Assembly: GCA_040830765.1 (NCBI GenBank)
Contig: JBFOMH010000019.1
Coordinates: forward strand, 128,001-192,000
Reading direction: 5' to 3'
DNA: 64,000 nucleotides
Source: Puniceicoccaceae bacterium
GTDB lineage: Bacteria; Verrucomicrobiota; Verrucomicrobiia; Opitutales; Oceanipulchritudinaceae
In this document: in pieces, positions 1 through 23,236 of the stretch
How positions within the stretch are numbered: the first letter of the stretch is position 1
Layout of the letters: each line of letters begins with the position of its first letter
Position numbers and translations under genes: made by a program
The notes under the pieces: generated by a model
Told to the model about the DNA's origin: nothing
Databases searched by the model: none
Seen by the model: the letters and a program-made list of their open reading frames with translations, nothing else

Positions 1-3000
1 GGGTTATCAGTGAAAGCCCTGAAAGTTATGGAATCCCCTTCAGGATCGATAGTTGCAACACCAATGGCTGGGAGATCTAAATTCAGGATCTCATCCGGTT
101 GCGCGAAGATGTGTGGGAAATCGTCAAGCTGGGGCGACTGGAGGTTATCATCAAAATGCACTTCCTCAGCATTTATTGTTTCGACCAGGGTTTGGGCATG
201 GTCGTCAAGCGGGTTCCCCCTGAGGTCTACAGACTGGAGGTTTTCCAGCCAAGGATCGGCCGGTTTAACACGAACACTATCTGCGGCGAAACTTCCGTTT
301 CCACTATTGTCCAGAGTGACCGTAAGGATACCCGAATAGATCGCGACCGTATCAAGCAGCTCCCATTTGCGCCCGTTGAAGTCATCACTGCCCGGCTCGA
401 AACCTTGATTGACAACGTGTTGCCCAAGGGGCTTTTCATCACCATCCAGTGAGACGGACCCAATGGAGTAGCGCGAATCGATACTGCGGCTCTCATGAGA
501 CGGCCATGTTACGTAAATGGAATATTCCCCGGAAGGTAGTCCTTCAAATGACCAGGTTGCCATATGCTCACCCGTCAGTTCCGCATCCGGAACTAAGCGG
601 TAGCTGCCGCCATAAGCTCCCGGATGGTCCCCGCCCGACCAGCCATCACCCGTTTCGCTGTATTCCGTGTCCCCATTGTCGGCGATGAATTGTCCGATCA
701 AAACATCCACCTCGCTGACACGATTGTCCTGTAAATTTAGAACTTCCAGCTTGTCCAATCCAGCCAATGCAGAAATGTCGATGATTCCGTTTCCACGAGC
801 ACTCAGGGTGACCAGTTGCTCGAGCTCGCCTATTGATGATAGACCAGCTTCAAGGAGACTAATCTGGTGAAGCTCCCCTAGATCCGGCACATACAGGCGC
901 CCAGTGGAGGAGATATCAAAATACCAATTTGCATACGTCTCCTGCGCACTTGTGGAGGTGACATGAACAACTGGACCTTGGTCCGCAACCAAACCGTCTT
1001 CAGAATCGACTGTCCCCTGACGGAACACAACCCCACCACTGTCCAGGACATTCAGGAAGTACATTGAACCGTCCGGCCCAAAGTTCAGGTCATAAATAAA
1101 GTTCGCCGTTTCAGAAAATACCTCAGCGCTGGCGTTGTTCGCCAATGACTTGCCAGGTCCGGGGAACCGTATCACGCGGAGATCATTTCCTTGGGCTGCA
1201 TACAAATTGCCGTCGGGACCGAACACCAATCCAGTAAATCCGGATGCTCCCCCGCTCAACAGTGTCCCGTCAATGCTCAATTGGTTGAGAATAGTTCCGG
1301 AGAATGGAGAAATGACAAAAACCCGGGGATTCGAACCGTCGGAGGCATAGATCGAACCATCCGGTCCGACTGCTAGATCCCTGAGGAACACACCCTCAAC
1401 AGAACTGAATACCGATCCATTCGGGTCTTCATTTGGCCCGGGAAGCGGCTCACTCGTTATTCCATCGAACCTGTAGATTTTGTTTAAGTGCGTTTCCCCA
1501 TCAAACGATGTGCTGATGAAGTAAACCTTTCCATCCGCTCCAAAAACGGGTGGCGTACCAATAAAGTAATCCCCAATTGGCAATTCCGCGAAGTTGTTAA
1601 AGACCCCTGTTCCTTCGTCATAGACCAGAATCTGGGCGTTTCCAGTCGGTAACCTGTGAAGCACGAAAAGTCTGCCATCCGGGCTAATCGCAGAGCTGAT
1701 AACTTCATTCAACAAACCATCATCAAATACCTTCTTAGCAAACACGCCATTGTCATCCAGGCTCAGCCATTCGAGTGCCCGTAGATTCCTCAACACGTCG
1801 ATATTGGTCAGGAGGTTCGAGTCGACACTAAGCATTTTCAGCTCTGACAATTCCTCCAGTGCATCAATCGTTCGGATTTGATTGAAGTCCAAGACAAGGG
1901 TGTTCAACGAACGAGTATATTCCAATCCCGAGAGATTCCTTATATAGCGCTCCTGGGTTAGCTTGAAACCGCTGGCGACAAGATGTTTGAAACCGATCAG
2001 ATCGCTCACATGTATCGGTGACCGGAACACTGGCAACCCGTCCCAACCTTCCGTCACCGGAAGTCCCAGTTCGGTCGCTATGGCTGCCCGCAGATTGCGG
2101 TCCGGAATATCCACCTCAGGATCGCGTTCCCGGATCGCACTGTCGATGATGGACTCTCCAGCAAGCGGTTGAACCGTCAGTTCCTCACCATTGATGGCAT
2201 CGTTCGCCCGATCCCGGATTTCAACCGGTTCACCAACAAAAACATCCAGTCCGCTTTCCCCGAACAAACGGTCCCGATTCTCATTTCCGTCCAGTATATC
2301 CTCACCTTCCCCGCCATAGATGACATCATTGTCAAACCGAGTCGGGGGCACTTCTCCCCGCTTGGGAGCTTCGATGGAAAAGGTGATCTCTACCTCGTCG
2401 GCGGGCGGCAAGTAATCCTCTGCAAATCCCTCGCGGAGGACGAGTTCGGTCATGGAACCATTGGTTCTCCATAGCTCTAATCCGTTGATTCCATCATTGG
2501 CCTTGAAATATGTCCACCCGTTTAGCGGGGTAAACTCAAAGTCATACCCATCCCATGCCACACTGCCGCTGCCAAAGGAGATGCCCCCAAAGGAGCCAAG
2601 GGGAGAGACAAGCTCGGTAATATCTCCATCCGTACGCCAAATTTCTTCACCGAACCGGGGGATATCAAAACCTGCATCGACATCATACAGGTCGCTGTCC
2701 GCTCCAAAGTAGAGCCACCCGTTAGACTCAGTGAATCCCCAGGGAGTATTCAGTTGCCAGGGAATGTTGGTCTCTGGATTGAGAGCAAAAACCCGCTCTA
2801 TTCCATCAGCTGTCGTCCGGTGGATATGGTTATCAAGATCCTGGCCCCGGAAATACAGTTGGTTATTGAACAAGGCAAAATCGTCGGGATTGTAAATGTA
2901 GGCTCCTTGTATCTGGACAGCTTCGAGAGTGATGTTCTCCGGATCAGATATTTGACCAACAGTGTGCCACAAAACATAGTCACCCTCATTGTCATCGTAT

Positions 3001-6000
3001 ACCCGCATGTAAATACGATCCGCGTTCCCATCATTGAAAATAAAGTATTCATCGATATCAATTAACTCGAGGGGCTTGGTGGTAGACAAGGGGCGCGTTT
3101 CGATACCGTCTGTGCGCCACAGGGGAAGACTCCCGTTCCCGTCTTCAGCCAAAAAGTAAAGGACGCCATCAAACTCCATGAATTTCGTTGGGAAAGAGCC
3201 TCCTGCAGGATTAATATCAAGAAAGGGATCAACGGGAGCAGTAAGTCCATCCGTACGCCAGAGTTCCCTGCCGGATTCGCCATCGTCAGCAGTGAAATAA
3301 AGGAATCCATTATACGGGTGAAGATTTAGTGGACCGCTGAGCAAGCCAAAGCCAATGTTAATGTCAGTGAATGGCTGTGTTGGCACAGAACTGCCATCGA
3401 TCCGCCAAAGTTGAGGTCCGTTCATGCCGTCGTCGGCGGTGAAGAACAAGAATCCATTGAATTCGGTGAACCGTCGAGGTGTTGAACTATCAAGCCCCTG
3501 GTTGATGTCGGCATACAATTCAGTGATTTCTCCATTGGTTCTCCACAGCTCGTTCCCGCTACTGTAACTGCTCGCTGAGAAATACAGCCAGCCATCGAAC
3601 AGTACGAATCCCGACGGGTTCGAGTCGGCGACACCCGGATTAATGTCACGGACTAATTCTGTTACCGACCCATTTGTACGCCAAAGCTCGCGACCATTTC
3701 TGCCATCCTCCGCCGAGAAATAGAGCCATCCATTGAACTCAAAAAGGTCCAGTGGTTCTGATGGAGCGGGACCAGGGTTTATCCCGCCGCTGATGATTTC
3801 AGGTTCTGCACGAAAAACCCGCAGGAAATAGTGTCCGGCTTCCAGCCCTGCCAGGCTTATCTCTGCCTGGGAGGCGGCAATCAAGTCCCCGGTATCCGAA
3901 TAGAGATCGGCCAGAAGTCCCGGCCGGGACGAAATATCTGCCGACAATCCAGTTTTCGAAAAAGCACTAATCCCCCTGGCCTCATGATACGGTAGTGCTA
4001 TGATGTCGCCAGACCCTCCCCCGAATTCGATTTCGAATACTATCCGTGTCCTTCCACCTTCTATGAAGGAACGGATGTGTTCAGTTGGCACTTCAAACAA
4101 CGTCGGCCCGCCGCGAATCGTATAATCTCCAAGATGCGTGCGGGATGATTGCACATCGAGAGAGGCTGTACCATCGCCTTCAACTGCAAGAGCGTAGAGC
4201 TCAATCTGACTTGTAGCCACCCCTGCCACGATGAATTGAAACGATTGCGCGAATTCAATCACCAGATTAATTGTACCTATTCTACTCTCCTCGCCGTCTG
4301 AGAAATACGGCAGTAGCGGTGACAGATCAAATTCGAAACGAGTCGCACCGCGGCCTGCCTCATTTGAAATTCCATTGAAGGATATGCTGTTCGCGGGGTC
4401 GTGGGCCGGACTAATCGAAATTCTGTCTTGAGCGCCTCCGTCTCCTAAAGTCGTGAATTGGTACCAACCCTCTGATTGATTCTCTGTCAGAATCCCCTTG
4501 GGCAAGGGCCTGCTATCTTCTATCAGGAATTCGCCACTCCCGGAGACGGAAAGATTGGATAGCGTATCCGCTGGAGGCGTACTTTCAAATCCCTTCAAGC
4601 GCTCTCCAGGAAGCAAATAGATGGCCCCGGCGTTTATTACCTCGCTTGAATCATATCCAGCCGCCCCAATTAGCAGATCATCGATTCCATCGCCGTCAAC
4701 ATCACCAACCGGTGCAAGCGGCATCGTGCCAAATAGCGGAGCATAAGATGTGCCCCTCAGGATGGGTTCTTGTAATGATAGGGTGTGGATCCCCTGAGAG
4801 GTTGTCTCATCAAGATGGAAAATGTAAACACTGCCATTCGAGTCACTTACAGATTGGTCCGGGCCAACATATATTCTATTCCGAGGCTCTCCAATGGCCA
4901 AGTCGATGTATCCATCGGCATTGAAGTCGCCTGCAGATACGCTAAGAGCGCCCTTTGGCAAGCCTCCCTGTTCCCAGCCGATCCGGATACCTTGAACAGG
5001 ATAACTGCTTAAGAACGGATCCCCAGGGTATTGGGGATCAGCCCTCAAATCCTGCGCCCCATAGATGATAAACGCACCGCCGATGAAGCCGTCTTCGTAT
5101 ACGAAGTGGTTCAAGTCATGCTGATGAGCAACCGCGAAATCATCGTAACCGTCCTTGTTTATGTCACCCAATCCGTAGATTCGCGGCTCTATGAAAGGAG
5201 TACTAAACAATTCACTTTGCCAGACCTCAACCCCGGATGTATTGGGATTCAGTTCCAGCAAGTTGCCAGATTCCCCCTCTGCATTGCCGTAAACCAGGTA
5301 GCCACGATTAATTGCGGAATCTATAAAGAAGACATCCTCAAGGCCATCCCCATTAACGTCCCCAACATTACTCGATGACAAGGATGAAGAGCCATATTGG
5401 CGATAGATCGAGTCGCCCGAAATCCTTGCAAGCAGATTTCCCGGGTCGTTAAGGATATATTCTGTGAATTCGAATGTTCCGATTCTCGATACTTCATCTC
5501 CCGAAAATACGATGGCAGCAGTTTCTGTGATCGAGAAGTCATCAAATCGAACCAGGGGTTGACCATCGGGATCCGGCTCATTGTTCGGACCTGTTCTAAA
5601 GTAATAATCAGCCAAAAGGCTGATTGTTGATGCCTGACTTGTCGCAAGGAATGTTGCCTCAAAGTACCCACTGTGGAAGCCTACAACTTCTAAATTCCCC
5701 GTTACAGCAACTGTCCATGGCTGAAGAGGATTCAAATTTTCCACATAACCCGTTATTGTATAGACCCTACCAGGTATTGTATCAAACTGTTGGTAGAAAC
5801 CACCCCAGTTGTTATTCAGTTGGGTTCTTGCAAGCCCATAACCCTCCGAGTATTCAGCATCCCCCTGCAAAAACCATCCACCTCCGTCTGGAAGGAAACC
5901 ACCATTTTCAAGCCGTTCGACAGCACGTTGATAAGTAAGCAGCAGATCTTCGTCCGAATCACCATTCCAGTTCACAGCTTGGATGCTTACTTCCTCGGGA

Positions 6001-18000: not shown

Positions 18001-21000
18001 GCTTCGAATGTGTGCCTGAAATCGATCTGGAAGGTCAACACTCCGGACGGCATGTCGAAATCGATCGCACTAAAGGCCGGAAAATCCAATTGGATGCCCT
18101 GGAGACTGTCGAAACCCGGTGAGCCCAGTTCGAGCTTCAGACCGTCGAAGAGTTCCCCGATGTAACGGAAAAAGTCCAACAGTTTATCAAGTGAAACATC
18201 GGGTAAAGTTATATCCCCAAGGTCCGGTAAACGGAGATTCTTGAGAAACGAAAAGTCAAATCCACTGAAGGCGGGCCCTTGTCCGAATTGGGTAAACCAG
18301 CCACTCAACTGGTCAAAGAGCCCGAGAAGATCAAACCCATCGAACAGGCTGAAGCGTCCAAAATCAAAACTGCCAGATCCCGGGTCTCCAGACTTCAGGC
18401 CATCAAACTTGAGCCAATCCGGGTTGAACTGGAAATCGAAGAATGTGTCCGGATCGATACACAAGTCGGTATCAATGCTCGTTGAAAACCCGTCCAGCTT
18501 TCGCTCATATCTTCCGATTTTCACGATTAGGGGCAGGTTCAGATCAAACCGGACATCGCCGCAGTCCATGGCAATGAGTTCATCAAGCGATGAAGCAAGC
18601 ATTTCAGCCACTGTAACCCGCCCATCTGAATTGGGATCAACGAAATTGAGCTCTGTTGTCAGAAGGAAATCAAGCGTGGCATTTGCACTGTCGACCTGGG
18701 TTTTGAGCTCTCCAAGACGCGCTGTCACGTCAATGGGATTGCTATCCGGGCCGGCAACCGCCTTGGCAGAAAGACTCAGCAGGGGTAGAACCGCTCCCTC
18801 AGAATTCCGGGCACTAGAAATGAAGAATGCATTGGAAGAAACCTGGTCAACAGAGAGGTCTATGCCGAAGGTAAACGCCAGTTCCAGCGCGAGTTCAAGA
18901 TCGACCGTTGTGTTGGAATCCAAGTCCAGTCCGATGTTCAGGTTATCCGCTGCATCTCCCAGATCGAGTGCGGCGTCCAGCGTCCTTTGCCCCTTGAAGA
19001 CGATATTCTGGAATAGGATTTCATTGCCACCTTCAATGACTATTTCAAAGTTCTCATCCAGGATGGGTGACCACTCCATGCCGTCGTGAATGAACGACTG
19101 CTTTTTTAATGTTTCGATCAGTCCAAAGCGGGTCGGTGCAGTGTCACCACTGAAGTAATTCTCAATCGGCTGAATCAGCGATTCATTGAGTTTGTCATAG
19201 ATCTCGATAAGGTCGTAAATGGAACGAGCTGCTTTGGCCAATTCCCCGTTATCCCGCTGTATCAACTCAACCAATCCCGGAATTTCCTTGGCGAGTTCGC
19301 TGGCGGCAATGTTCTCCGAGAGCACCCGGACCAGGGCCCTGATTCCATCAAGGATGGTGGCCTGCAGTGGTTCGGACAGTATCTCTGTGGCAGGAGGGGG
19401 AGTGAAGTTGACCTGATAAATTCCCCAGTTGGTTTCCCGGTAGTCTATAGTGAGGCCGTCTACAGCCAACGATTCCCCCTCCCAGAATCGCGGGTCGTTG
19501 AAGTAAATGCTGTCAATGGAAGCCGGGCTGGAAGCCGCGGCATCCCTCAGGGCAACAAACTGGGTCCTTATCCAGGATGAGTCGTATTTATCGGCGTCGA
19601 TAAGCAAATCCGCAATCTCCCAAAGGATGATCTCACTGTAAAATGCCTCCCGCGCTTGAAGAGCCGTACTCCAATCAAATCCTGCTACGCTTGAATCAGC
19701 TGCCCGGTATGAACCGTCAGGATTTTCAACGATGACGAAACTGTCACCCCCCGGCGCCGCGACGTAAGTCATCAGCTGCCCGGTGCTATCCGATTCAAGA
19801 ACGCCAAAGAAAGGGGTGTAGGTTCGGCTGCCGTCCGTTCTCAGGTTACCATTCTCATCGAAGGGCCGATTGCTGACCTCAATGAACGTAATCGGCGTAT
19901 TGTCCGGGACCTCGAAGTCTATTTGCAGGCCCAATTCGTGGAGGTCGTCCTGATCGTCAGGAGGACCATGCAAGGGCGTGTCCCCACCCTGCCTCAAACT
20001 GGCACTACGCAACTCCAATGCTGGCCCGGCTGATTCCAGCAGGTTAGCAGCCCGGTAGATTATTTCCGCAGCCCAGCTGGTTCCCCAATCCTCAAGCTGG
20101 GCCTTGCCATCTACACCCATCTGGACATCGAGCCCTTCCGATTGATTGTCAGAGAATTGTTCCCACCCGGGTGCATTGGGATCGTTAAGCCACGTCGGTA
20201 GTAATTCATTACTGGGGGTGTGCTCAATTGCCGCGGAGGCAGAGGTCTTGAACGAAACCGCCCCGTTAAACAGTCCAATTGCATGAGCAGTCCCGCTTCC
20301 AATCTGCCCGGATAAGGGCAACTCATTTCCTAAAGCACTGGGAAATCCCAGGAAATTGAGCCGCTGCTGAACACGTAAGACATTCAAGGCGTCCGTCCCA
20401 GCCTGGACGGCGAATTCCCCTGTTTGTGAGTAGCCTCTGTCCACTTGAATCGTGAACGACCTCGCTGCTCCTCCGTTGACCCGGTAATTGCCGGTCAGGA
20501 ATCCTTGAAATCCCCGGCTGGCGGGATCGACATCGGTAACTCCCAATGCCGTGCTGGGGGCGAAATGGAATATTCCTGTCGATGCGAATGTCCCTGTTGG
20601 AGAGTTGTCGTATTCAAATTCTGTAAACAGGGTCCCGATCAATTCAGTCCCATCGTAAATCGCCCAACTTCCTGATGGATTTTCCTGCGTTGTGTATCCA
20701 TCAAACCCAACCAGTTCATAGGTCGAGCCCGACGGCTGTTGCCCGCCAAGGTTGACCTCAATGAAATCTCCTGTCCGTCCTTCAGTGAAAACGCCCCCCC
20801 CGAGACTGACATTGTCCAAATGCACCTCGGCCTGGATGGCGTTGTCACTACCTCCATCAAGTGAGACCTCGAGCCGATAGATCTCCCTACCTGCAAAGCC
20901 TGCCGGCAGATTAAGACGAAGTGACCGGAAAGCCCCATCCTGGGCAACAAGAGAAACCGAGGGCAAATGGATCACCGCTGAGTTGTCCGATGGTAAAAGG

Positions 21001-23009
21001 GCAATATTCAGGACATCATCTTGCGACGGACTGACTACTTGCAGATCCACGTGTAGTTCCGTGGCAAAACTGGGAATGTAGAACCAATTGTGGACCCTTG
21101 TCGCTGAGGCTTCATTGAGAATCAGGAAGTGGTTATTGCCGCGACCAAGACCAACACGGGCAGTCTCTCCACCACCGTGGTGGGACCAGCCAGGTTCGAT
21201 ATTAGTCGAATTGGAACTTTCCGGTTCTAAAGGTGGGGTCTCGAAATCACCATGCACAATCTCCAAAGGATCCCATTGAGGCGCCCAACGGACCTCGGTG
21301 AACTGCTGTTCCGACAATCCCAAAACGCGGAGTGCGTCTATGGCAGCAGAACCATCATCGTTTACCAGTTGGTCGGGGGTATTGTCGTGGTTCTGGGGAT
21401 TTGAACTTGCGTTGACATCGCCGAAGAAAACCGGATCCGGCCGCACAGCTGTGCTGGGCATGCTGTCCAATGACTTCGCCGCGGTGCTGTAGGCATATCC
21501 AGTATTGGAAAAAATAGGATTCAAGTCTGTCTCGGGCAAAATCGCACCTTTAGGAATCGTCCCCTGGATAGTCGCCATGTAAAATGTCGACCAGACCCAG
21601 CTGTGGTCGCCCCCAAAATCCTTAGCTAACAATTCGTACTTTTCAGGGAGATAGGGATCGACCAGGAAATTGTAAGCTCCTGGTATTGGCCGGCCTCCTG
21701 GTACTGCAATGCCTCCGATACTATTCTTGTTCTCAGTCTGGTAGTAGACGTCAGCGAATTCGACATTATCCCAAATGGTTGCCCCATACCCGTTTTGGAT
21801 CTGGAAAGTATCGTAGAGAATGGTGTTGAATTGCGGCAGCCCGATCCCAGATTGCCCCTGCAGTTCGTCAATAGGAATCAGGATCTGGTCGAAGTCATGA
21901 GGATCCAGGAAGGTAACGTGGTCGACAGGAACATCATACCGGGCAAGGCGCTCTACAGCTTCACTTGTGACTGCTGAGCCAAAACTGTGCGCGATGAAGT
22001 GCAGTGGAATGTCGTTGGCAGCTCCCAACTCAGGTTCTACCAAGCCCAGCCCGGTTAGCATTGAAAAAAGCGCATCGCCTGCTGCCTCCGTCCATCCGGA
22101 GGTGGGCTCATTTGACTCAACCGCCCAATCAAACAGGAGTATGAGGTGTCCAGATTGACCAACATCCAGAACTGGGTCCGGCAGAATACTTGAATTCACC
22201 TCAGTGCTCGATCGATCAAATCCTCCCGCACCTCCTTGGTCGACTAAATCATAATCCAGCAACCAGGCTTTCTGTACGGTATCACCATTTGAGGTTATTC
22301 TCTGGTGTATTGCCTGGGCCAACTTCCAGAGCGCATCCCCGGATTCTGCCCCATAGTCTTCCAACGCAGCTCGAAGTGAAGGCGTAAGTTCAGGATAGGA
22401 TTTTAGGATGAGATCTATCGTTCCCTCAAATCCCATTTGGAATCCGTGGGTAATCACGGTCACTCCCGTGATGACCAAGTCTTTTAGCTGAGTCGCAATC
22501 TCTTGCAACGACAATAAGGATTGGTCCACTGACTCGAATACTGGTCCATTGTATTGTTCGGATGGAGGCGCCCTCGGCATCAACGATCCAGAAGTTGACT
22601 GATCGGACAAATTTGTCCTGTCCGTTTGATCTCCGGATATACTGCCTGCAGCAGCTGAGTAACTGGTAGTATCCGACAAGAGGAATTGCTCTATGGCTTG
22701 CCCATCAAGTAGTTCAAGGCTCAATTCGGGACCGATCGCATTACCCTCGCTGGAAGTGTCAAAATTCTCCTTTTCCCCGAGAAGTTCCTGGTCTTCCACG
22801 TCGAAAATTCCGTGCTTGTGGGTATCAGACCCATTACCTGCAACGGATATTTCACTCTCAATATCTGCGCTAAATACCTCACTTGTTTGTGCCTGATCTT
22901 CGAAGATATCCTCTTGATAGCCAACAGGCATACCTTCTCCAGAAAGCAAGAGCCGGGGCTCAAGCCTCTCCAAATCGAAACTTCGTCGAGCTGGAATTTT
23001 CTTTGGCAC
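1..23009 (-). CDS. Giant multidomain secreted/surface protein (gene B), LEPR-XLL type; 3' end lies beyond the left edge; >7,660 aa
   Basis: Manual translation of the minus frame with codon starts =2 mod 3 reads open from GTG 23009 (MPKKIPARRSFDLERLEPRLLLS) to position 3, with recognisable domains throughout. None of the minus-strand ORFs listed in 1..23065 is in this frame, consistent with no in-frame stop. An in-frame TGA at 23016-23018 bounds it upstream. The start codon is uncertain. Confidence 0.92.
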   Translation of the reverse strand, partial: MPKKIPARRSFDLERLEPRLLLSGEGMPVGYQEDIFEDQAQTSEVFSADIESEISVAGNGSDTHKHGIFDVEDQELLGEKENFDTSSEGNAIGPELSLELLDGQAIEQFLLSDTTSYSAAAGSISGDQTDRTNLSDQSTSGSLMPRAPPSEQYNGPVFESVDQSLLSLQEIATQLKDLVITGVTVITHGFQMGFEGTIDLILKSYPELTPSLRAALEDYGAESGDALWKLAQAIHQRITSNGDTVQKAWLLDYDLVDQGGAGGFDRSSTEVNSSILPDPVLDVGQSGHLILLFDWAVESNEPTSGWTEAAGDALFSMLTGLGLVEPELGAANDIPLHFIAHSFGSAVTSEAVERLARYDVPVDHVTFLDPHDFDQILIPIDELQGQSGIGLPQFNTILYDTFQIQNGYGATIWDNVEFADVYYQTENKNSIGGIAVPGGRPIPGAYNFLVDPYLPEKYELLAKDFGGDHSWVWSTFYMATIQGTIPKGAILPETDLNPIFSNTGYAYSTAAKSLDSMPSTAVRPDPVFFGDVNASSNPQNHDNTPDQLVNDDGSAAIDALRVLGLSEQQFTEVRWAPQWDPLEIVHGDFETPPLEPESSNSTNIEPGWSHHGGGETARVGLGRGNNHFLILNEASATRVHNWFYIPSFATELHVDLQVVSPSQDDVLNIALLPSDNSAVIHLPSVSLVAQDGAFRSLRLNLPAGFAGREIYRLEVSLDGGSDNAIQAEVHLDNVSLGGGVFTEGRTGDFIEVNLGGQQPSGSTYELVGFDGYTTQENPSGSWAIYDGTELIGTLFTEFEYDNSPTGTFASTGIFHFAPSTALGVTDVDPASRGFQGFLTGNYRVNGGAARSFTIQVDRGYSQTGEFAVQAGTDALNVLRVQQRLNFLGFPSALGNELPLSGQIGSGTAHAIGLFNGAVSFKTSASAAIEHTPSNELLPTWLNDPNAPGWEQFSDNQSEGLDVQMGVDGKAQLEDWGTSWAAEIIYRAANLLESAGPALELRSASLRQGGDTPLHGPPDDQDDLHELGLQIDFEVPDNTPITFIEVSNRPFDENGNLRTDGSRTYTPFFGVLESDSTGQLMTYVAAPGGDSFVIVENPDGSYRAADSSVAGFDWSTALQAREAFYSEIILWEIADLLIDADKYDSSWIRTQFVALRDAAASSPASIDSIYFNDPRFWEGESLAVDGLTIDYRETNWGIYQVNFTPPPATEILSEPLQATILDGIRALVRVLSENIAASELAKEIPGLVELIQRDNGELAKAARSIYDLIEIYDKLNESLIQPIENYFSGDTAPTRFGLIETLKKQSFIHDGMEWSPILDENFEIVIEGGNEILFQNIVFKGQRTLDAALDLGDAADNLNIGLDLDSNTTVDLELALELAFTFGIDLSVDQVSSNAFFISSARNSEGAVLPLLSLSAKAVAGPDSNPIDVTARLGELKTQVDSANATLDFLLTTELNFVDPNSDGRVTVAEMLASSLDELIAMDCGDVRFDLNLPLIVKIGRYERKLDGFSTSIDTDLCIDPDTFFDFQFNPDWLKFDGLKSGDPGSGSFDFGRFSLFDGFDLLGLFDQLSGWFTQFGQGPAFSGFDFSFLKNLRLPDLGDITLPDVSLDKLLDFFRYIGELFDGLKLELGSPGFDSLQGIQLDFPAFSAIDFDMPSGVLTFQIDFRHTFEALTAELDFSEGLGDLVNISTDGTLSIVPELATNFVFGIRIPESRRELTSGTALSELNNDNGVRGVVPGLDDIGFQLADGTVFPISLDGLSTIGAVVDSILQAEGQFVPALAESLYDSRDDALDLNRFSLLDQVTGLVFRSGQDEHWLRFTLEEPGESGDSLTLEGFGLSELIIELIDNAGDTIRLTSGDLPEIDLRELEPGDYFLRVYGGDAGLAYNLKVSSSSGPATDTLHVGQNISVRLSGDSNNLAFQDLTDGAGTFSIIALNGSTAGAPGFGLGILSTDNDRDGLITGAPLLSNSLSENFFIRDFELSAEFGFQASDVDALADLQFFNVGIQDGSGSGRATLVIKAKDPSREMTFKEIWESVSKPEEALFEVGSYTDPGKTEFQARPSGTLNIELPVRLRPASLHNALVKEGTEPLIVVSWTDIFDVASLSVTLEDFPELDKLKELAFQKIVQGLRELQASIDEFENNDLFSQEIILLEKSINDLVDLSDVFGGIVDQIEGSGILTIADLERVLSNALFEISNGKERSSGLLAGPPVLNGGWSISGTESTFGAVTEFVIVEGIEDPGFIPVSLAFDPLTDVDAANNTIQFGTPHNLSEGDRIVFVRTFGSSDVTGLEDGKPYTAVIVDENTIRVRGEDDGEMVALGSPGNPTNTLVFEVDSESPLVAGNSYFIEFELLERNGDVGQLVLENVLEGQEDLVILQANEDLPGRYKVVWEQGQDAANLTIRATAGFAGVIDGLIVQSRSVSFEDNLLQVEFDFRDRGSQELPLNFNLAPLELGNIPSSLISAGGDLTLAHLIDLDFDFAIELSDPLSPQFYLRDSSQVTVGTKLDTDNLDFSAGFGGLGVHIVGGSVQLSNPNPQNPEDDLATWELTLNRGSFDLGNTGETSDSLYHLLVEMDSEVDLKQTLSGRLSASLPTFSPTKTNPIGSFELEVPSLEAFFVALFDDNVPLQSGVDGQYTYSLPDFQGALDEFLGDFTNAWGSITGGWDAFLAFLEDAVDREIFGIEIPLIGDQLKEASPFLSDLRSAMKGLGEPGTRDQLKERLLEALGPDNLNLLKDSDGDFDVDLDDILVVAENTNAENLEFNLLLGKSLEIIDPNDTPINVDLGLPGLGLDIDGSVQLELAFEFFLTFGINKNKGFYFGTNRTNELSIQLEAALPDLSARGTLLFLELDVADNGTEVSGHINIDLKDGGDGDGRLYLSELANSNGQLFSADLSVEAEIELHLLTSFAGNPRFPSLRTDLSVYWDFEGDENGRLPGSVPIIEFNNVAINAGSFFNDLFGPLLEDIDAFLDPVREPLKFLTNPLPALDQLGLRLSILDIASIFGEDTEYEGTINFIRSVVELAELADSLSASSERDGWIKMGDSDPSSPDFTIDGNHALDGQMSGKLNPENAKSGGSKLNELLGKGAGKDLEKSESLKFLFPLFETPALAFQLLMGKNVDLVVLDLPKFAINFPWELQPWIPIFPPWPVFLRMTAHVGAFADLSFGFDTKGIRTYIENGASDPADILDGLYIGDLDENGKDRPEFGLTAGFAATAEVNIFVAAAGVGGGIFSNIDLNLNDPDGDGRVRWSELERNLAVGPLWIFDVSGAITFDVFAYLKIGYETFIKFITIYEESLRYSATIINWNIPRPNTTPVLASNNEGVLTLHIGESAARRKPGGAGNAVVDAKDGDENFRVLPGATPDSVIVRAFGVEQSYSGVSRIVARAGQGNDSIYIDPGVVIPVVLHGGPGNDQLTAGGGNASLYGDEGVDVLLGGIAADYLDGGGGNDDLSGNGGNDLLIGGPGNDNLEGGAGNDTLRGLAGIDRLEGGFGDDWLDGGDGDDSLVGSLGNDDLLGGAGNDILIGNRGNDRLDGGPGDDDLQGDENNDQLIGGLGNDYLFGGRDFDTIWGDEPDDEVNGGDDIIWGGRGNDIIYGGAGNDRIFGGVDIGQYAVASVGAGSDRIIGGAGADTIYAGNDGKGSGVDTGNTIYGDLENSADPGGMPTEHSDTIFGDSGDDMIFAGFGDDMVYALQGDDLVLAGRGDDTIVAGSGRDSVFAGSGDDLVLGETGDDFLAGEIGDDRLSGGIGSDVIWGGFADLQREDFESTPESIAFELPRESLEAEARFPTGYDAPLIMPVAVLQVSLGGYFMDGQDSIDGGTGTDWIFGGGSVDTLFGGEGDDYIDGGAGNDEISGGGGDDIIRGGLNSDILHGDAGIDQLIGDPGADFLYGDAGDETTGATRGQRLFGGSGIDYLYAWAASIDPAREILLEGEQLFGGSDGDWLYGNLRQDVIDGGGGNDYIHGDYLAGPVYERNRDASISGGDDRLFGGTGEDQLYGGGGNDTLWGGADSDWLEGQNGLDNLYGGAWIDILVLDTEFDYTSEGGTFDGHFGNASENDVPDDNATDILQIRGTAYDDTIRIGQVSQDDNRLVVQILTVVKAESSTAPDSGISASGEASLFSLEVIAEWKDSSGNPLVEQFRIAGLSGDDIIEFVDEPGDFHPLDIGQLANRGANVKDFIGVIDGGSGDDTLTGTSGRDRIDGGEGSDTLYGLAGNDRLWGGETTASDDHDILYAGPGNDDLIGGSGTNELYAWSRNPHTEPFGIFLVDEQTGEILIDEQSGKPVLEDTGLNRMLGGKGNDKLYGGTGLDFMYGNGGDDTLYTRDGVAFENVESQFNERGDEWKLYAKSTDQVWYYSGTNLPDVIRVDYVTEPGLIGEHHLITRLTENNGNFTFDAEVQLSFFATDADGNRIWDQYDTLFGFSGIESSDAETRGIALAAADSESRKSEADRREARDLVNSLLPPEADFLAILIDALDGNDEVVVGPTVTKTVWVDGGDGDDVILINSGTPILIDKTEKQVFELPDETRLELRNDEPFVAVSTGGTTIQLTTAYELSDGIKGSTAFSGLTIDNPDDKDNYLFSIADGIVLNPGDAIVINSLSITDQIHFKLFEWTGTDWTAVTGGESTSDGRIDLYQEGTPIINPEGEYLLQVTSNRTPTRYEILFDLIATPDAVDLSASNNEFSSAHEIADIEFKERIAGLNLHDSAEQDADWFWFDIPEQGIQAQRLPDQLVKLVDLNDSGLTLALFNEFQEAIPSVGTGSELNLSNLDPGRYYLLVSGNPGRYELLTSIGRSGIDTEDLSAFEIQDLAPSLQVVRQDVLLGGNGNDVLIGGAYEDWIFGGDGNDVLSGGYDNQASDILWGGSGDDIFQIILDQLPLVESAGRGLNPTGGTFVPTLVDRLDGGDGEDQVLFLGGDYDRFGQPVPDHVAIRYNTVLHRYELTALLWDLANHRFVTEPAFGGGEQYAQHYAFYQAVNIESTVIDTRAGDDVVHGNPGYILNGSEWGIAPQARPQGATIAALTILGGDGNDLLFGGAEDDFIDGGDGNDYIAGGEGSDELFGGPGDDLVSGNSQQEDPYEWVLRNGVIGSNDELEFAAKLEDFTADSPIYATFNAGDGADWYLIRTPPHLEQMSLQAAKAGVQGAITVVFKGAAEQGIFEQEEIANLLIDVYAATYQDGIVQLSTDTVASPEYFLVRVRNVATFGLTGAEIQIDGEINERLVLFLTEGGGDIRVEESRPVLIDPNAFNFSTTTIDGRIDLLNASLQDTDWRDDFSITIGDYKDVFAYRYGNKIGLFPLDGSRLRISMGSGNIVREGSFFADGSPAEQPVSSTLISLPITEEPSSPWLGNEKSSIDLGTAYVRSDGAFSTRNPERGTIVQRLETIPGRTYAVFAEVWTISALHRVAQTTEFDFANPDFSTGKSVIDWDHSSGKFYGSFVAEGEVTFLLLQTEIDYYDAVAAFEEVVVMPIDEAGQVNPEFGFTSGQTNRLLEPAMGTYSISFNFDSGVFGTDLAGGGDGDPEFIEFSPATPLNILAGNEDNLPFAEGGTARGSLTISYNIGDINGDSYDDFMFREDPNARDQSEQFAYILFGPLESQNSPAIADTADIIVDIGSIGVPSEHMGDVDGDGIDDLIFLNAYSKDIGVITIIRGDGSAWPRDLSALTILDLPDDRIYQIQNVTAPEEVSIQAVNWNGDSDEDLLLTYQRAVERLENGGFLPDGGGWFLQGDAEYSEGYGLARTQLNNNWGGFYQQFDTIPGRVYTITGYVENLNPLQPWTVAVTGNLEVVGFHSGYFEATFLATSQASTISLLADYYFRTGPNNEPDPDGQPLVRFDDFSITETAAIVFSGDEVSRIGTFEFTEYILNDPGNLLARISGDSIYRQYGSSSLSSSNVGDVNGDGLEDVFFIDSAINRGYLVYGNAEGESGNLLELNPNTSGVEVWQSELFSTPFIEPRIYGLGDINKDGYDDFAVAHQHDLNHFVYEDGFIGGAFIIYGAQDLRADPQYPGDPFLSSYPVQGIRIGWEQGGLPKGALSVSAGDFNADGYIDLAIGEPRNRIYVGPDQSVSDSNGSVYIFHLDETTSQGIHTLSLQEPILRGTSYAPLFGTMPLAPVGDVDGDGIDDLLIGAAGYDSSEVINAGAIYLLPGERLKGFESTPPADTLSNLSVSGSGEFLIEDSRPLPKGILTENQSEGWYQFTTLGDGGAQDRISISPAHDPANSISFNGISNEAGRGATRFEFDLSPLLPYFSDGEESRIGTINLVIEFAQSFQFIVAGVATSQIELYALAVEGDGTASLDVQSSRTHLGDYTIRGGPTLFEVPTEHIRSFIEGGRTRIVFEIEFGGGSGDIIALPYHEARGISAFSKTGLSADISSRPGLLADLYSDTGDLIAASQAEISLAGLEAGHYFLRVFRAEPEIISGGINPGPAPSEPLDLFEFNGWLYFSAEDGRNGRELWRTNGSVTELVRDINPGVADSNPSGFVLFDGWLYFSASSYSSGNELWRTNGEITELYADINQGLDSSTPRRFTEFNGFLFFTADDGMNGPQLWRIDGSSVPTQPFTDINIGFGLLSGPLNLHPYNGFLYFTADDGESGRELWRTDGLTAPVDPFLDINPAGGSFPTKFMEFDGVLYFLAEDGNGSLPLWRTDGIETRPLSTTKPLELIDIDEYFIFNDGNADRIYMRVYDDNEGDYVLWHTVGQISDPENITLEAVQIQGAYIYNPDDFALFNNQLYFRGQDLDNHIHRTTADGIERVFALNPETNIPWQLNTPWGFTESNGWLYFGADSDLYDVDAGFDIPRFGEEIWRTDGDITELVSPLGSFGGISFGSGSVAWDGYDFEFTPLNGWTYFKANDGINGLELWRTNGSMTELVLREGFAEDYLPPADEVEITFSIEAPKRGEVPPTRFDNDVIYGGEGEDILDGNENRDRLFGESGLDVFVGEPVEIRDRANDAINGEELTVQPLAGESIIDSAIRERDPEVDIPDRNLRAAIATELGLPVTEGWDGLPVFRSPIHVSDLIGFKHLVASGFKLTQERYIRNLSGLEYTRSLNTLVLDFNQIRTIDALEELSELKMLSVDSNLLTNIDVLRNLRALEWLSLDDNGVFAKKVFDDGLLNEVISSAISPDGRLFVLHRLPTGNAQILVYDEGTGVFNNFAELPIGDYFIGTPPVFGADGKVYFISTSFDGETHLNKIYRFDGITSEPLPGPNEDPNGSVFSSVEGVFLRDLAVGPDGSIYASDGSNPRVFVISPFSGTILNQLSIDGTLLSGGASGFTGLVFGPDGNLYAAQGNDLRVIRFPGPGKSLANNASAEVFSETANFIYDLNFGPDGSMYFLNVLDSGGVVFRQGTVDSEDGLVADQGPVVHVTSTSAQETYANWYFDISSTGRLYVPDLGELHQISLLEAGLSSIGELEQLVTLSARGNGIIDISALAGLDKLEVLNLQDNRVSEVDVLIGQFIADNGDTEYSETGDGWSGGDHPGAYGGSYRLVPDAELTGEHMATWSFEGLPSGEYSIYVTWPSHESRSIDSRYSIGSVSLDGDEKPLGQHVVNQGFEPGSDDFNGRKWELLDTVAIYSGILTVTLDNSGNGSFAADSVRVKPADPWLENLQSVDLRGNPLDDHAQTLVETINAEEVHFDDNLQSPQLDDFPHIFAQPDEILNLDLPAIGVATIDPEGDSITFRAFTDN
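265..690 (-). other. Gene B: golvesin / xanthan-lyase CBD-like beta-sandwich domain
   Basis: IADNGDTEYSETGDGW...AYGGSYR...ATWSFEGLPSGEYSIYVTWP...VVNQ...KWELLDT...VTLDNSGNGSFAADSVRV. Confidence 0.7.
870..1740 (-). repeat. Gene B: six-bladed NHL/Vgb-like beta-propeller
   Basis: AISPDGRLFV, VFGADGKVYF, LAVGPDGSIY, LVFGPDGNLY, LNFGPDGSMY, FDISSTGRLYV at ~140-170 nt spacing. Confidence 0.75.
2440..3800 (-). repeat. Gene B: ELWxxDGT-repeat beta-propeller (about 9 repeats)
   Basis: FNGWLYFSAEDGRNGRELWRTNG, NELWRTNG, PQLWRIDG, RELWRTDG, LPLWRTDG, EEIWRTDG, LELWRTNG, with DINPG linkers. Confidence 0.9.
4620..6370 (-). repeat. Gene B: FG-GAP / integrin-alpha-like propeller with seven Ca-binding loops
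   Basis: GDINGDSYDD, GDVDGDGIDD, NWNGDSDED, GDVNGDGLED, GDINKDGYDD, GDFNADGYIDLAIGEP, GDVDGDGIDDLLIGA...NAGAIYL. Confidence 0.88.
5520..7110 (-). other. Gene B: two CBM4/9-like galactose-binding-fold domains (~5520-5915 inside an FG-GAP blade; ~6640-7110)
   Basis: LENGGF...GW...FYQQFDTIPGRVYTI...RFDDFSIT and IVREGSF...IVQRLETIPGRTYAV...AFEEVVV share a Q-x-x-x-TIPGR-x-Y motif. Confidence 0.55.
7830..12860 (-). repeat. Gene B: RTX / hemolysin-type Ca-binding nonapeptide blocks (main block ~10900-12860; others ~10070-10490, ~8430-8580, ~7830-7975)
   Basis: Dozens of GGxGxDxL/I repeats, e.g. LHGGPGNDQL, LDGGGGNDDL, LEGGAGNDTL, IYGGAGNDRI, LYGGGGNDTL. Confidence 0.95.
8680..9350 (-). other. Gene B: tandem PPC (pre-peptidase C-terminal)-like domains; further copies near 17320-17690, 7420-7770 and 3820-4480
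   Basis: DKDNYLFSI...GEYLLQV; NNEFSSAHEI...DADWFWFDI...LDPGRYYLLVSG; DEHWLRFTL...LEPGDYFLRVYG; EGWYQFT...LEAGHYFLRV. Confidence 0.7.
13100..19370 (-). repeat. Gene B: about five large degenerate units (helical part plus amphipathic beta strands), several with EF-hand-like loops
   Basis: Recurring EIP/PLP...L-x-F-x-FG-x-D...FF/FY...DP-x-x-DGR-x-x-x-x-E pattern; DPNSDGRVTVAE at 18603-18638 and DPDGDGRVRWSE at 13269-13304. Confidence 0.6.
19390..20390 (-). other. Gene B: peptidoglycan-binding domain (~20260-20385) followed by a MepA/LAS-type peptidase-like domain
   Basis: VLRVQQRLNFLGF...LPLSGQIGSGTAHAIGLFN (PG_binding_1-like); WGTSW...SLRQGGDTPLH...HELGLQIDF (Hx6D, H at 19938-19940, D at 19917-19919)...IYFNDP. 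Confidence 0.7.
20800..21265 (-). other. Gene B: carbohydrate-binding-like jelly-roll domain
   Basis: IVHGDFE...PGWSHHGG...VHLDNVSL framing, typical of galactose-binding-like modules. Confidence 0.5.
21580..22470 (-). other. Gene B: alpha/beta-hydrolase (lipase/esterase-like) domain
   Basis: VTVITHGF (HGF 22440-22448), LLFDW, LHFIAHSFGS (AHSFG 21978-21992), VTFLDPH (D 21903-21905), FADVYY, GGDHS (H 21603-21605). Confidence 0.85.
22941..22979 (-). other. LEPR-XLL (planctomycete-extracellular-type) N-terminal motif of gene B
   Basis: FDLERLEPRLLLS preceded by basic residues (KKIPARRS). Confidence 0.9.
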
Positions 23010-23071
23010 TGAAGGTCACGGAGAGCTACGCTTAGACCCTGTAAGGTCGCGAACAATACTTTCATATCAGC

Positions 23072-23079
23072 TCACCTCC
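23072..23079 (-). promoter_or_regulatory. Strong Shine-Dalgarno GGAGGTGA, 6 nt before ATG 23065
   Basis: Minus strand reads CTGGAGGTGAGCTGATATGAAA; this ATG opens the 114 aa ORF, not the gene B frame. Confidence 0.65.
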
Positions 23080-23236
23080 AGTGGTCAAGAATTTACATTA
23101 ATACTATCTATTAAAATCGCTAATACTTAGGGCCTCCGCTTATCCCGACATCGTTGACTTTAGATGAGTCTTGGAGGAACCGATACGCCCCTCTTTCGAG
23201 GCCTCCAGGCAAGGTGAGCCGGTTAACCAAACCGGA

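Follow-up and report, generated by a model that had tools for sequence, protein, structure and literature searches.

The window analyzed here, a stretch of 64,000 nucleotides, is occupied almost entirely by two giant open reading frames on its minus strand (Table 1). Together they cover 63,771 of the 64,000 bases (99.6%) and both are truncated by the window, in agreement with the initial annotation, which had assigned them more than 99% of the sequence. That annotation had also described one of the two as a hidden giant of more than 7,660 aa that runs off the left edge. Its frame, the target of this study, begins with a GTG codon at position 23009 and continues for 7,669 aa with an open 3' end; the translation contains none of the in-frame stop codons that would have spoken against the gene. 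Extending the contig (C19) to the left completes it, 3.4 kb past the window edge, at 26,436 nt and 8,811 aa. The two genes span 82.6 kb on C19 alone, which bears out the proposal of a tandem locus of giants exceeding 64 kb.

Table 1. The target gene, its predicted domains, and its neighbor, in window coordinates (aa, residues of the 8,811-aa translation).
Feature	Position	Strand	Remarks
Target gene	3..23009	-	Residues 1-7669 of 8,811; rest to C19:124574; stop-free frame and in-frame codon signal
Spacer, gene A stop to target start	23010..23236	.	227 nt
Gene A, upstream giant	23237..64000	-	13,587 aa in window, 5' end open; 18,661 aa on C19
LEPR-XLL tag, aa 13-28	22926..22973	-	LERLEPRLLLS; NF012209 20.6 bits (cutoff 17)
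Acidic low-complexity linker, aa 29-177	22479..22925	-	From translation; no family match
Lipase/phospholipase-type alpha/beta-hydrolase domain (predicted fold), aa ~178-545	21375..22478	-	Candidate triad Ser342 (HSFG), Asp369 (LDPHD), His469
CBM/MAM-type jelly-roll beta-sandwich (predicted fold), aa ~579-741	20787..21275	-	
PG_binding_1-like helical domain (predicted fold), aa ~860-946	20172..20432	-	
MepA-like LAS-fold domain (predicted fold), aa ~947-1208	19386..20171	-	H-x(6)-D kept (HELGLQID), H-x-H replaced (GIYQVN)
Region aa 1209-2419	15753..19385	-	Long helices, then beta-rich; conserved in P0002, P0003, P0004
Conserved core, aa 2420-3400	12810..15752	-	Common to most LEPR-type giants found
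RTX calcium-binding beta-roll region, aa ~3401-5060	7830..12809	-	PF00353 up to 229.8 bits (cutoff 23)
FG-GAP/FG-GAP_3 repeats, beta-propeller type, aa ~5600-6100	4710..6212	-	PF01839 76.5 bits, PF13517 45.9 bits
ELWxxDGT repeat block 1, aa ~6390-6860	2430..3842	-	TIGR04534 176.8-227.5 bits (cutoff 65)
ELWxxDGT repeat block 2, aa ~7860-8260	Outside window	-	
Leucine-rich repeats, aa 7033-7087	1749..1913	-	LRR_8 28.1 bits (cutoff 27)
Second leucine-rich repeat, aa 7398-7437	699..818	-	LRR_4 34.7 bits (cutoff 27)
Golvesin_C domain, aa 7442-7581	267..686	-	PF25275 42.6 bits (cutoff 31.6)

This frame constitutes a genuine coding gene of 8,811 aa. Its codon frequencies correlate with those of 815 reference ORFs (r = 0.71), while the two shifted frames give 0.02 and -0.12, and matches to Pfam and NCBIfam models extend from residue 13 to approximately residue 8,630. 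Chance is excluded as its origin because the codon signal is found in this frame only and the family matches run along its length. Misassembly had been named as a second way in which the gene might prove spurious. Contigs from four public runs in three studies, compared with 20 kb of the gene, match at ≥99% identity in 71 of 75 records with no indels, and the probable source run covers all 30 bins of the target. An oligo-dT metatranscriptome adds 41 contigs over 26 of 30 bins; these are strandless, DNA carry-over is possible, and the four bins without cover in this run (X2) carry no evidential weight.

A decaying or nonfunctional giant ORF, recently transferred and not translated, or an assembly chimera, would account for several features of the gene: a GC3 of 0.53, against 0.67 in the 815 reference ORFs and 0.68 in gene A; an N-terminal segment of 1,191 aa that is found in none of 40 relatives; and a GTG start that lacks a Shine-Dalgarno sequence, where a 114-aa ORF in another frame opens 56 nt upstream with a strong Shine-Dalgarno sequence and an ATG. 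Nevertheless, we consider this explanation very improbable, as an open frame of 26.4 kb could not persist unselected, candidate catalytic residues are conserved, a paralogue is kept intact in the genome, and the sequence recurs without indels in three studies and is present in RNA libraries. The upstream ATG (window position 23065) was itself tried as the true start, followed by a frameshift, and was rejected because it opens a separate 114-aa ORF unlike the N terminus of the paralogue, with which the GTG frame aligns. Simple scans of the spacer between gene A and the target and of the region after the target stop found no promoter- or terminator-like sites above shuffles. Gene callers routinely miss giant bacterial genes where a contig or window ends, and very little is known of what such genes do; the target is a complete, well-supported case with RNA-library support.

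The target is the third and last giant of an array. Gene A precedes it, and the left end of a second contig, C7, holds a 2,649-aa fragment with a LEPRLLL tag in the same orientation and frame as gene A. A 495-nt (165-aa) repeat is shared by the left end of C7 and the right end of C19 (92% and 89% nucleotide identity) and occurs nowhere else in the genome, and the C7 fragment ends in 80 aa that match the 78 aa at the start of gene A at 81% identity. The fragment is very probably the missing N terminus of gene A, as judged from this repeat similarity, and gene A would then reach at least 21,310 aa. Among 38 chunks of gene A scanned with Pfam, 8 gave matches, which were scattered and of the RTX type only. 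Upstream of the C7 fragment lies another tagged giant, of 5,302 aa. Across the C7-C19 join, the coding sequences of the three giants, all on one strand, total about 106 kb, and the array that they form is no shorter than this; its spacers measure 157, ~295, and 227 nt, and the first of these separates the foremost giant from a gene for a SecA-like protein.

Family models and fold matches account for much of the length of the target. The initial annotation had counted at least a dozen domain types; eight pass curated family cutoffs (LEPR-XLL, RTX, FG-GAP, ELWxxDGT, LRR, Golvesin_C, SdrD_B, and PKD, of which the SdrD_B and PKD modules lie beyond the left window edge), and structure lends support to a further four (lipase-like hydrolase, jelly-roll, PG_binding_1-like, and MepA-like LAS). 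In a search of the whole genome, the tag of the target scored 24.3 bits (C19:150926-150973), and none of 14 control genomes had a match. The RTX region holds 34 of the 35 GGxGxD motifs in the protein, with 16 and 12 PF00353 stretches per 600-aa chunk. Of 20 giant homologues, 19 align over the preceding core (aa 2420-3400), which is present in 5 of 40 relatives; the best hit of an ESM Atlas search with it (0.89) was an unnamed cluster, and no named family was returned. Residues 1209-2419 matched no Pfam or NCBIfam model, and self-BLAST detected no internal repeats in aa 700-3450.

New here is a reading of the "dark" N-terminal third, in which structure prediction suggests recognizable enzyme and cell-wall-binding folds. 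From the tag inward, this part of the protein is predicted to fold as a lipase/phospholipase-type hydrolase, a glycan-binding-type jelly-roll, a peptidoglycan-binding domain, and a degenerate MepA-like peptidase domain. The predicted structure of the first shows an alpha/beta-hydrolase fold with a nucleophile elbow, and its best fold matches of named function are lipases and phospholipases. Residues S342 (29/30), D369 (29/30), and H469 (30/30) are conserved in alignment A2; we take them to be a catalytic triad, a candidate assignment made from motif position and the pancreatic lipase pattern. The hydrolase model leaves out aa 178 to 214, which carry a conserved THGF motif. In sequence, the head has no significant similarity to pancreatic-lipase-type lipases or phospholipases A1 (2oxe, 6u7m, and 4qnn). 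For aa 29-3400, Pfam and NCBIfam gave no match at E ≤ 0.01, and thus none above cutoff to PF00151. PDB sequence searches returned no match for aa 150-640 and one design construct (E = 1.4) for aa 860-1340. A head profile retrieved 1bu8 alone from the PDB, weakly (E = 0.54), the ESM Atlas leads were likewise weak (0.78 and 0.75), and 1 of 20 short relatives passed the Thioesterase cutoff, over 40 residues.

The fourth domain has a predicted LAS fold, without significant sequence similarity to the penicillin-insensitive murein endopeptidase MepA (1tzp and 1u10). The LAS zinc-ligand pattern is H-x(3-6)-D plus H-x-H, and the MepA type corresponds to MEROPS M74. Among 15 aligned homologues, 5 keep H-x-H (of the GHFHV type), while the target, its paralogue, and the homologue P0003 do not. 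The target therefore lacks the full metal-ligand set of a MepA-type zinc peptidase, and its domain appears to be catalytically degenerate through loss of H-x-H. P0024 and P0153 are relatives whose modules retain H-x-H. P0153, with the full motif, was also compared with the PDB; it matched antibody light chains only, which we judged spurious.

The predicted hydrolase fold is also compatible with esterases acting on polysaccharides, and so the protein might instead be a polysaccharide-foraging scaffold, with a carbohydrate esterase at its head and jelly-roll, PKD, and propeller modules that bind algal or host glycans. It would then support a sugar-degrading way of life and would not attack the envelope of another cell. 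This is unlikely in our estimation. The best named hydrolase matches are lipases and phospholipases, the pairing of PG_binding_1-like and MepA-like domains suggests peptidoglycan, and the genes downstream, which are either convergent or without a strand relationship, do not stand beside the homologues. We prefer a head directed at the cell envelope.

By its tag, above the 17-bit cutoff, and its size, the target belongs with the LEPR-XLL giant RTX proteins (NCBIfam NF012209, model name "LEPR-8K"); its tagged relatives measure 4,536 to 7,988 aa. Collinear relatives of 7 to 8 kaa occur in other phyla. For example, P0003 (7,988 aa, from an Accumulibacter metagenome-assembled genome) and P0004 (7,721 aa) carry the same N-terminal tag as the target and are likewise close to 8 kaa long, are collinear with it over aa 166-1771, 1906-2191, 2420-5204, and parts of the C-terminal third at 27 to 41% identity, and have the same domain set (RTX, FG-GAP, LRR, Golvesin_C, and PKD). 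However, their C-terminal modules are partly swapped, and P0003 has neither the ELWxxDGT blocks nor the C-terminal tail of the target. Our literature search found no experimental study of such LEPR-XLL members.

Immediately upstream of the 5,302-aa giant, and on the same strand, lies an export cassette that encodes, in order, a TolC-like channel (OEP, 119 bits), an adaptor (HlyD), a GAF-adaptor (GAF-HlyD), an M50-protease-adaptor fusion (M50/daptide_HExxH-like, 170 bits), and a truncated SecA-like ATPase of 676 aa (SecA_DEAD, 340 bits). The genome holds six tagged ORFs and one such cassette. A tagged gene is thus adjacent to the cassette in its own genome; the target itself is third in line, about 80 kb downstream, by way of the putative C7-C19 join. 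Tag and cassette also co-occur elsewhere. In 40 relatives, the kin among which are not independent, a strong M50-adaptor match (E ≤ 1e-50) was found in 16, and 13 of these 16 have a LEPR-XLL match; the other 24 yielded 2 LEPR-XLL matches, both weak and in frames of 636 and 158 aa. The M50-adaptor occurs with no tag match in three relatives, whose genomes are 84%, 92%, and 92% complete. In six relatives, as in the present genome, a tagged ORF begins ~2.2 to 2.4 kb away from the gene for the M50-adaptor; in those six the ORF measures 3,594 to 21,533 aa. For the lipase-like module, adjacency to the cassette is not general, because the two lie less than 10 kb apart at only 2 of 76 loci in other genomes.

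The initial annotation had called the giants secreted. For the target this is supported by the tag, the upstream cassette, the RTX motifs, the lack of transmembrane-like segments (no 19-residue window exceeds a KD value of 1.6; maximum, 1.58), and a strongly acidic, cysteine-poor composition (1,435 D+E against 465 K+R and 2 Cys), and the claim now stands as an inferred one. We suggest from these features that the target is addressed to the cassette and exported by it. The dozens of RTX repeats and the same composition would also suit a classical type I substrate, an RTX adhesin or toxin that leaves C terminus first through an ABC transporter, an adaptor, and TolC, with tag and cassette irrelevant. 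In keeping with this, the target and gene A have a conserved acidic tail at the C terminus (49% identical across 94 aa), and generic ABC exporters are encoded in the genome, two of them adjoining at C19:71905-75303. Nevertheless, no HlyB- or PrtD-type transporter in the genome (96.9% complete) or at the locus scored above curated cutoffs (TIGR01846, 350 bits against 725.55; TIGR01842, 238 against 510.15). Moreover, the RTX block is central and ends ~3,700 residues before the C terminus, gene A alone has the tail in common with the target, the 11 collinear or core homologues of other phyla that were inspected lack it, and tag and cassette co-occur. Type I export of the target is in our view improbable, and we favor export by the cassette.

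LapA, the Marinomonas ice-binding adhesin, and Legionella RtxA resemble the target in being very large, acidic RTX proteins that form calcium-folded surface fibers with ligand-binding modules. Those adhesins depend on an ABC transporter and a signal at the C terminus, and they have an N-terminal retention module and long arrays of Ig-like extenders. No such transporter, retention module, or extender array was found for the target, and no C-terminal signal was recognized.

Three reports, each cited here from the portion of its text available to us, describe related systems. First, Chlorobium chlorochromatii Cag_663 and Cag_665 (20,647 and 36,806 aa) are described as calcium dependent, with an N-terminal 24-aa LEPRxLL sequence, a neighboring TolC-like gene, no known signal peptide, and a proposed export that brings them into contact with another cell; these Chlorochromatium giants are reported to be transcribed, detected as protein, and moved to the partner cell (bioRxiv 10.64898/2026.03.19.712371). 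As described there, they are far larger than the target, are dominated by beta-helix and hemagglutinin-like repeats, and have different heads. Second, the "Secondary SecA_DEAD" locus of Kamneva, Poudel, and Ward (2015; PMC4452313) comprises a truncated SecA, three HlyD-type proteins (one M50, one GAF), and an OEP/TolC, with no ABC transporter; the available text names no cargo, and the word "giant" does not occur in it. This gene set equals that of our cassette, likewise without an ABC transporter; unlike the locus as described in that text, ours leads straight into three tagged giants. Third, the Omnitrophota giants are presented as proteins of mostly unannotated sequence, for which structure prediction is required, and are proposed to act in adhesion and cell-wall attack with involvement of a SecA-related ATPase; they are described as rich in transmembrane regions and as having a SecA DEAD domain fused to them (West-Roberts et al., 2023). 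The target, in contrast to that description, has no transmembrane-like segment and no SecA domain by Pfam or NCBIfam, and the SecA-like protein is encoded by a separate gene.

On balance, we lean toward the explanation that the target is a genuine gene of a marine, Oceanipulchritudo-like Verrucomicrobium (Opitutales/Puniceicoccales), set in an array behind its export cassette, and that it encodes a fiber with an envelope-directed head. The protein is probably a calcium-stiffened surface fiber equipped with a lipase-like enzyme and a module that binds the cell wall. The N-terminal LEPR-XLL tag would direct the unfolded protein to the cassette, which would carry it through both membranes with no ABC transporter involved, perhaps with clipping of the tag. 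Outside the cell, the RTX beta-rolls at its center would fold with calcium to give a stiff stalk, and the protein would then act as a surface or extracellular fiber. The beta-propeller (FG-GAP and ELWxxDGT), LRR, Golvesin_C, SdrD_B, PKD, and jelly-roll modules may bind glycans or other cells, while the head would carry its lipase/phospholipase-type esterase and peptidoglycan-binding module to the envelope of a neighbor or to a host surface.

A broader proposal, which we offer tentatively and think rather doubtful, is that LEPR-XLL giants are the missing cargo of an ABC-less route built from the truncated SecA, the M50-protease-adaptor, and the TolC-like channel, and that the head of the target marks a widespread, undescribed "harpoon" class of envelope-attacking or envelope-gripping proteins. 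The position of the gene in its array, directly behind the cassette for which the available text of the 2015 paper names no cargo, makes two questions concrete: the role of LEPR-tagged giants and the cargo of the secondary-SecA cassette. If the proposal is true, one machine would serve six cargoes that take up ~5% of a 4-Mb genome, and such harpoons would be used against neighboring cells or on host surfaces. The lipase-like module usually comes right after the tag, and the relatives of the peptidoglycan module include some with an intact MepA-type site. The lipase-like module, which is found in 730 sequence clusters, follows a LExRxLL tag at 58 of the 71 loci where the N terminus is present (reversed-sequence control, 0/76).

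The initial annotation described a single minus-strand frame that stays open to the left edge of the window, and two ORFs that fill over 99% of the 64 kb. Both descriptions were borne out. The frame begins with GTG at 23009 and occupies 3..23009 (minus strand; 7,669 codons, left edge open); with gene A, the upstream giant on the rest of the window (23237..64000, minus strand), it covers 99.6%. In the host genome (3.99 Mb, 40 contigs, 96.9% completeness, 0.06% contamination), where the window occupies C19:128001-192000, the frame reaches its stop at C19:124574, giving a full gene of 8,811 aa. Codon frequencies correlate with those of 815 reference genome ORFs in frame (r = 0.71) and not in the shifted frames (0.02 and -0.12), and matches to curated family models span residues 13 to about 8,630. 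As a check on misassembly, 20 kb of the gene was compared with contigs from three studies (four runs in all), and zero indels were found. The probable source run covers 30/30 bins of this 20 kb, the second study 19/30, and the third 13/30; the run label of the matching data is mollusc metagenome. In an oligo-dT metatranscriptome, 41 contigs cover 26/30 bins. Because DNA can occur in RNA libraries, transcription of the target is likely but not proven. The probable source run also holds a strain bubble at window 3866-3985, where one of two 120-nt contigs equals the window and the other carries 9 substitutions.

The GTG start has no Shine-Dalgarno sequence. In another frame, at window 22721-23065 (-), a basic ORF of 114 aa overlaps the first ~95 target codons; its ATG at 23065 is preceded by a strong Shine-Dalgarno-like GGAGGTGA. 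This ORF could have arisen by chance, or it could act in translational coupling or as a leader element.

The target is a member of an uncharacterised kind of LEPR-XLL giant RTX protein (see the table). No transmembrane-like segment was found in the protein, which has 2 cysteines and 1,435 acidic versus 465 basic residues. The acidic tail is not common to relatives from other phyla. Twenty public-data giants match the target at E<=0.001, and 2 are collinear over most of its length.

Features of the target, its paralogue, gene A, and the C7 cassette
Feature	Location	Size or remark
LEPR-XLL tag	aa 13-28	
Acidic linker	aa 29-177	
Stretch without family match	aa ~178-3400	
RTX repeats	aa ~3401-5060	34/35 GGxGxD motifs
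FG-GAP repeats	aa ~5600-6100	
Two ELWxxDGT blocks	aa ~6390-6860 and ~7860-8260	
LRR	aa 7033-7087 and 7398-7437	
NHL/ScyE-like stretch	aa ~7211-7327	below threshold
Golvesin_C	aa 7442-7581	
SdrD_B	aa 7725-7781	
PKD domains	aa ~8455-8632	
Acidic tail	aa 8725-8811	49% identity with gene A C-terminus
Target paralogue	G000 C8:1-17832 (-) and C33:1-11538 (+)	about 9,790 aa or more
Gene A pieces	window 23237-64000, C19:192001-207222, C7:2-7948	
Truncated SecA-like ATPase	C7 cassette, same strand	676 aa
M50/daptide-peptidase-like adaptor fusion	C7 cassette, same strand	718 aa
GAF-adaptor	C7 cassette, same strand	620 aa
Adaptor	C7 cassette, same strand	251 aa
TolC-like protein	C7 cassette, same strand	623 aa

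An exhaustive search with aa 150-1340, the N-terminal head, returned 730 representative proteins, 433 of them at E<=1e-10. Among the 150 matches listed, aa ~220-740, in the lipase-like hydrolase head, recurs at 40-60% identity in giants and in proteins of 450-800 aa; in the 20 short relatives scanned, no family model matched a full domain with confidence. A 30-sequence alignment yielded a model of aa 215-745 (pLDDT 85.6, pTM 0.90) that places Ser342 (HSFG) in a strand-helix elbow. Ser342 and Asp369 are each conserved in 29/30 sequences and His469 in 30/30, while a conserved 'THGF' strand is absent from the model because it starts at aa 215. The model of the cell-wall module (aa 860-1340; pLDDT 81, pTM 0.75) shows two parts. 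Its motifs were read by the ligand pattern of LAS enzymes: 'HEAGxDID' and 'GHxHV' occur together in 5/15 aligned homologues, and the target, its paralogue, and P0003, a 7,988-aa Accumulibacter relative, retain the first but carry 'GIYQVN'-type residues where H-x-H would stand. Given this replacement, the LAS-type domain of the target probably serves in binding and not as a peptidase.

Six LEPR-XLL-tagged ORFs were identified in the host genome. Gene A leaves the right end of C19 within a 495-nt repeat in which the left end of C7 begins (92% and 89% identity, same strand and frame); the repeat was not found elsewhere in the genome, and the C7 end encodes a tagged N-terminal fragment of 2,649 aa. 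With this piece, very probably its missing N-terminus, gene A comes to at least 21,310 aa. Its N-terminal part consists of ~165-aa repeats, which account for the break in the assembly; nearly all of gene A lacks family matches, with RTX matches in only 8/38 chunks scanned. Upstream on C7, the same strand carries a tagged giant of 5,302 aa and, beyond it, the cassette. The tandem giant locus of more than 64 kb proposed initially thus holds and is exceeded, as a three-giant array; its export route, like the function of the target, is one that we infer. No HlyB- or PrtD-type ABC transporter scored above cut-off in the host genome. Two adjoining genes for generic ABC exporters (617 and 638 aa; C19:71905-75303, minus strand), about 50 kb from the target, score under T1SS cut-offs.

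The target is the last gene of the array. Next downstream come FKBP, GAF, and RadC genes, and L002 1-16574 (C19:108001-124574) holds a polysaccharide-use cluster of a radical-SAM/SPASM protein, which may be a sulfatase maturase, GH94, an AraC-type regulator, GH10, and three sulfatases. Elsewhere, a 15,026-aa LEPRLLL-tagged ORF (C5:130171-175248, minus strand) ends with a zinc-protease-like 'HELGHILGLGH' motif, and a comparable 'HELGHLAGLVH' lies close to the C-terminus of P0003.

The target paralogue is split within the ELWxxDGT repeats over C8 (5,944 aa, 55-61% identity) and C33 (3,846 aa, 38% identity). Its GC3 (0.67 and 0.58) is nearer the genome value (0.67; gene A, 0.68) than is that of the target (0.53), so the copies did not arise by recent duplication. 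The RpoB sequence of the genome shares 93% identity with that of Puniceicoccales bacterium CK1056 and 92% with that of an Oceanipulchritudo sp. MAG. We searched 40 relatives (12 of the same genus, 12 of the same family, 16 of the same order). The N-terminal 1,191 aa were found in 0/40, and the core (aa 2420-3400) was present in 5/40, each time within a giant ORF. The low GC3 of the target and the absence of the module from the relatives searched suggest horizontal acquisition.

Strong M50-adaptor matches occur in 16/40 relatives (excluding G001, a 68% complete genome with a partial 5e-34 match) and LEPR-XLL model matches in 15/40: 13 have both, 3 the M50-adaptor alone, 2 the tag alone (both weak), and 22 neither. 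In six relatives, as in the host genome, the start of a tagged ORF (3,594-21,533 aa in these relatives) lies 2.2-2.4 kb away from the M50-adaptor gene. Since kin are not independent, this co-occurrence of tag and cassette genes is an association, not proof. Bigger tagged ORFs directly follow the cassette in G023 (C62; 21,533 aa) and G004 (C22; 14,125 aa).

The cassette corresponds to the locus that Kamneva et al. 2015 (PMC4452313) described as 'secondary SecA_DEAD', whose cargo is not named in the available portion of that paper. Giant genes are described as frequent in Planctomycetes (PMC5177795; Reva and Tummler 2008 as cited there). The giants that West-Roberts et al. 2023 describe have many transmembrane regions and a fused SecA domain, whereas the target has neither. 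According to a 2026 preprint (bioRxiv 10.64898/2026.03.19.712371), the LEPRxLL motif occurs on two Chlorochromatium giants, which are expressed and exported; the two other mentions of 'LEPR-XLL' seen in the literature are annotation only. A search of main texts by family found no papers on head domains of LEPR-XLL giants. The present analysis adds a complete target gene model, a structural assignment of the N-terminal head, the three-giant array behind a SecA-like cassette, and a test of the tag-cassette link.

Across 76 loci of other genomes, a LExRxLL motif precedes the lipase-like module in 58 of the 71 that include an N-terminus (reversed control, 0/76). The module lies inside an ORF of at least 3,000 aa at 39 loci, and a cassette lies within 10 kb at only 2/76. 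It also occurs in a 2,873-aa ORF of a Methanomassiliicoccales archaeon MAG (CP070739.1), where no LExRxLL motif was found upstream of it; this occurrence may be due to gene transfer or to an error in binning.
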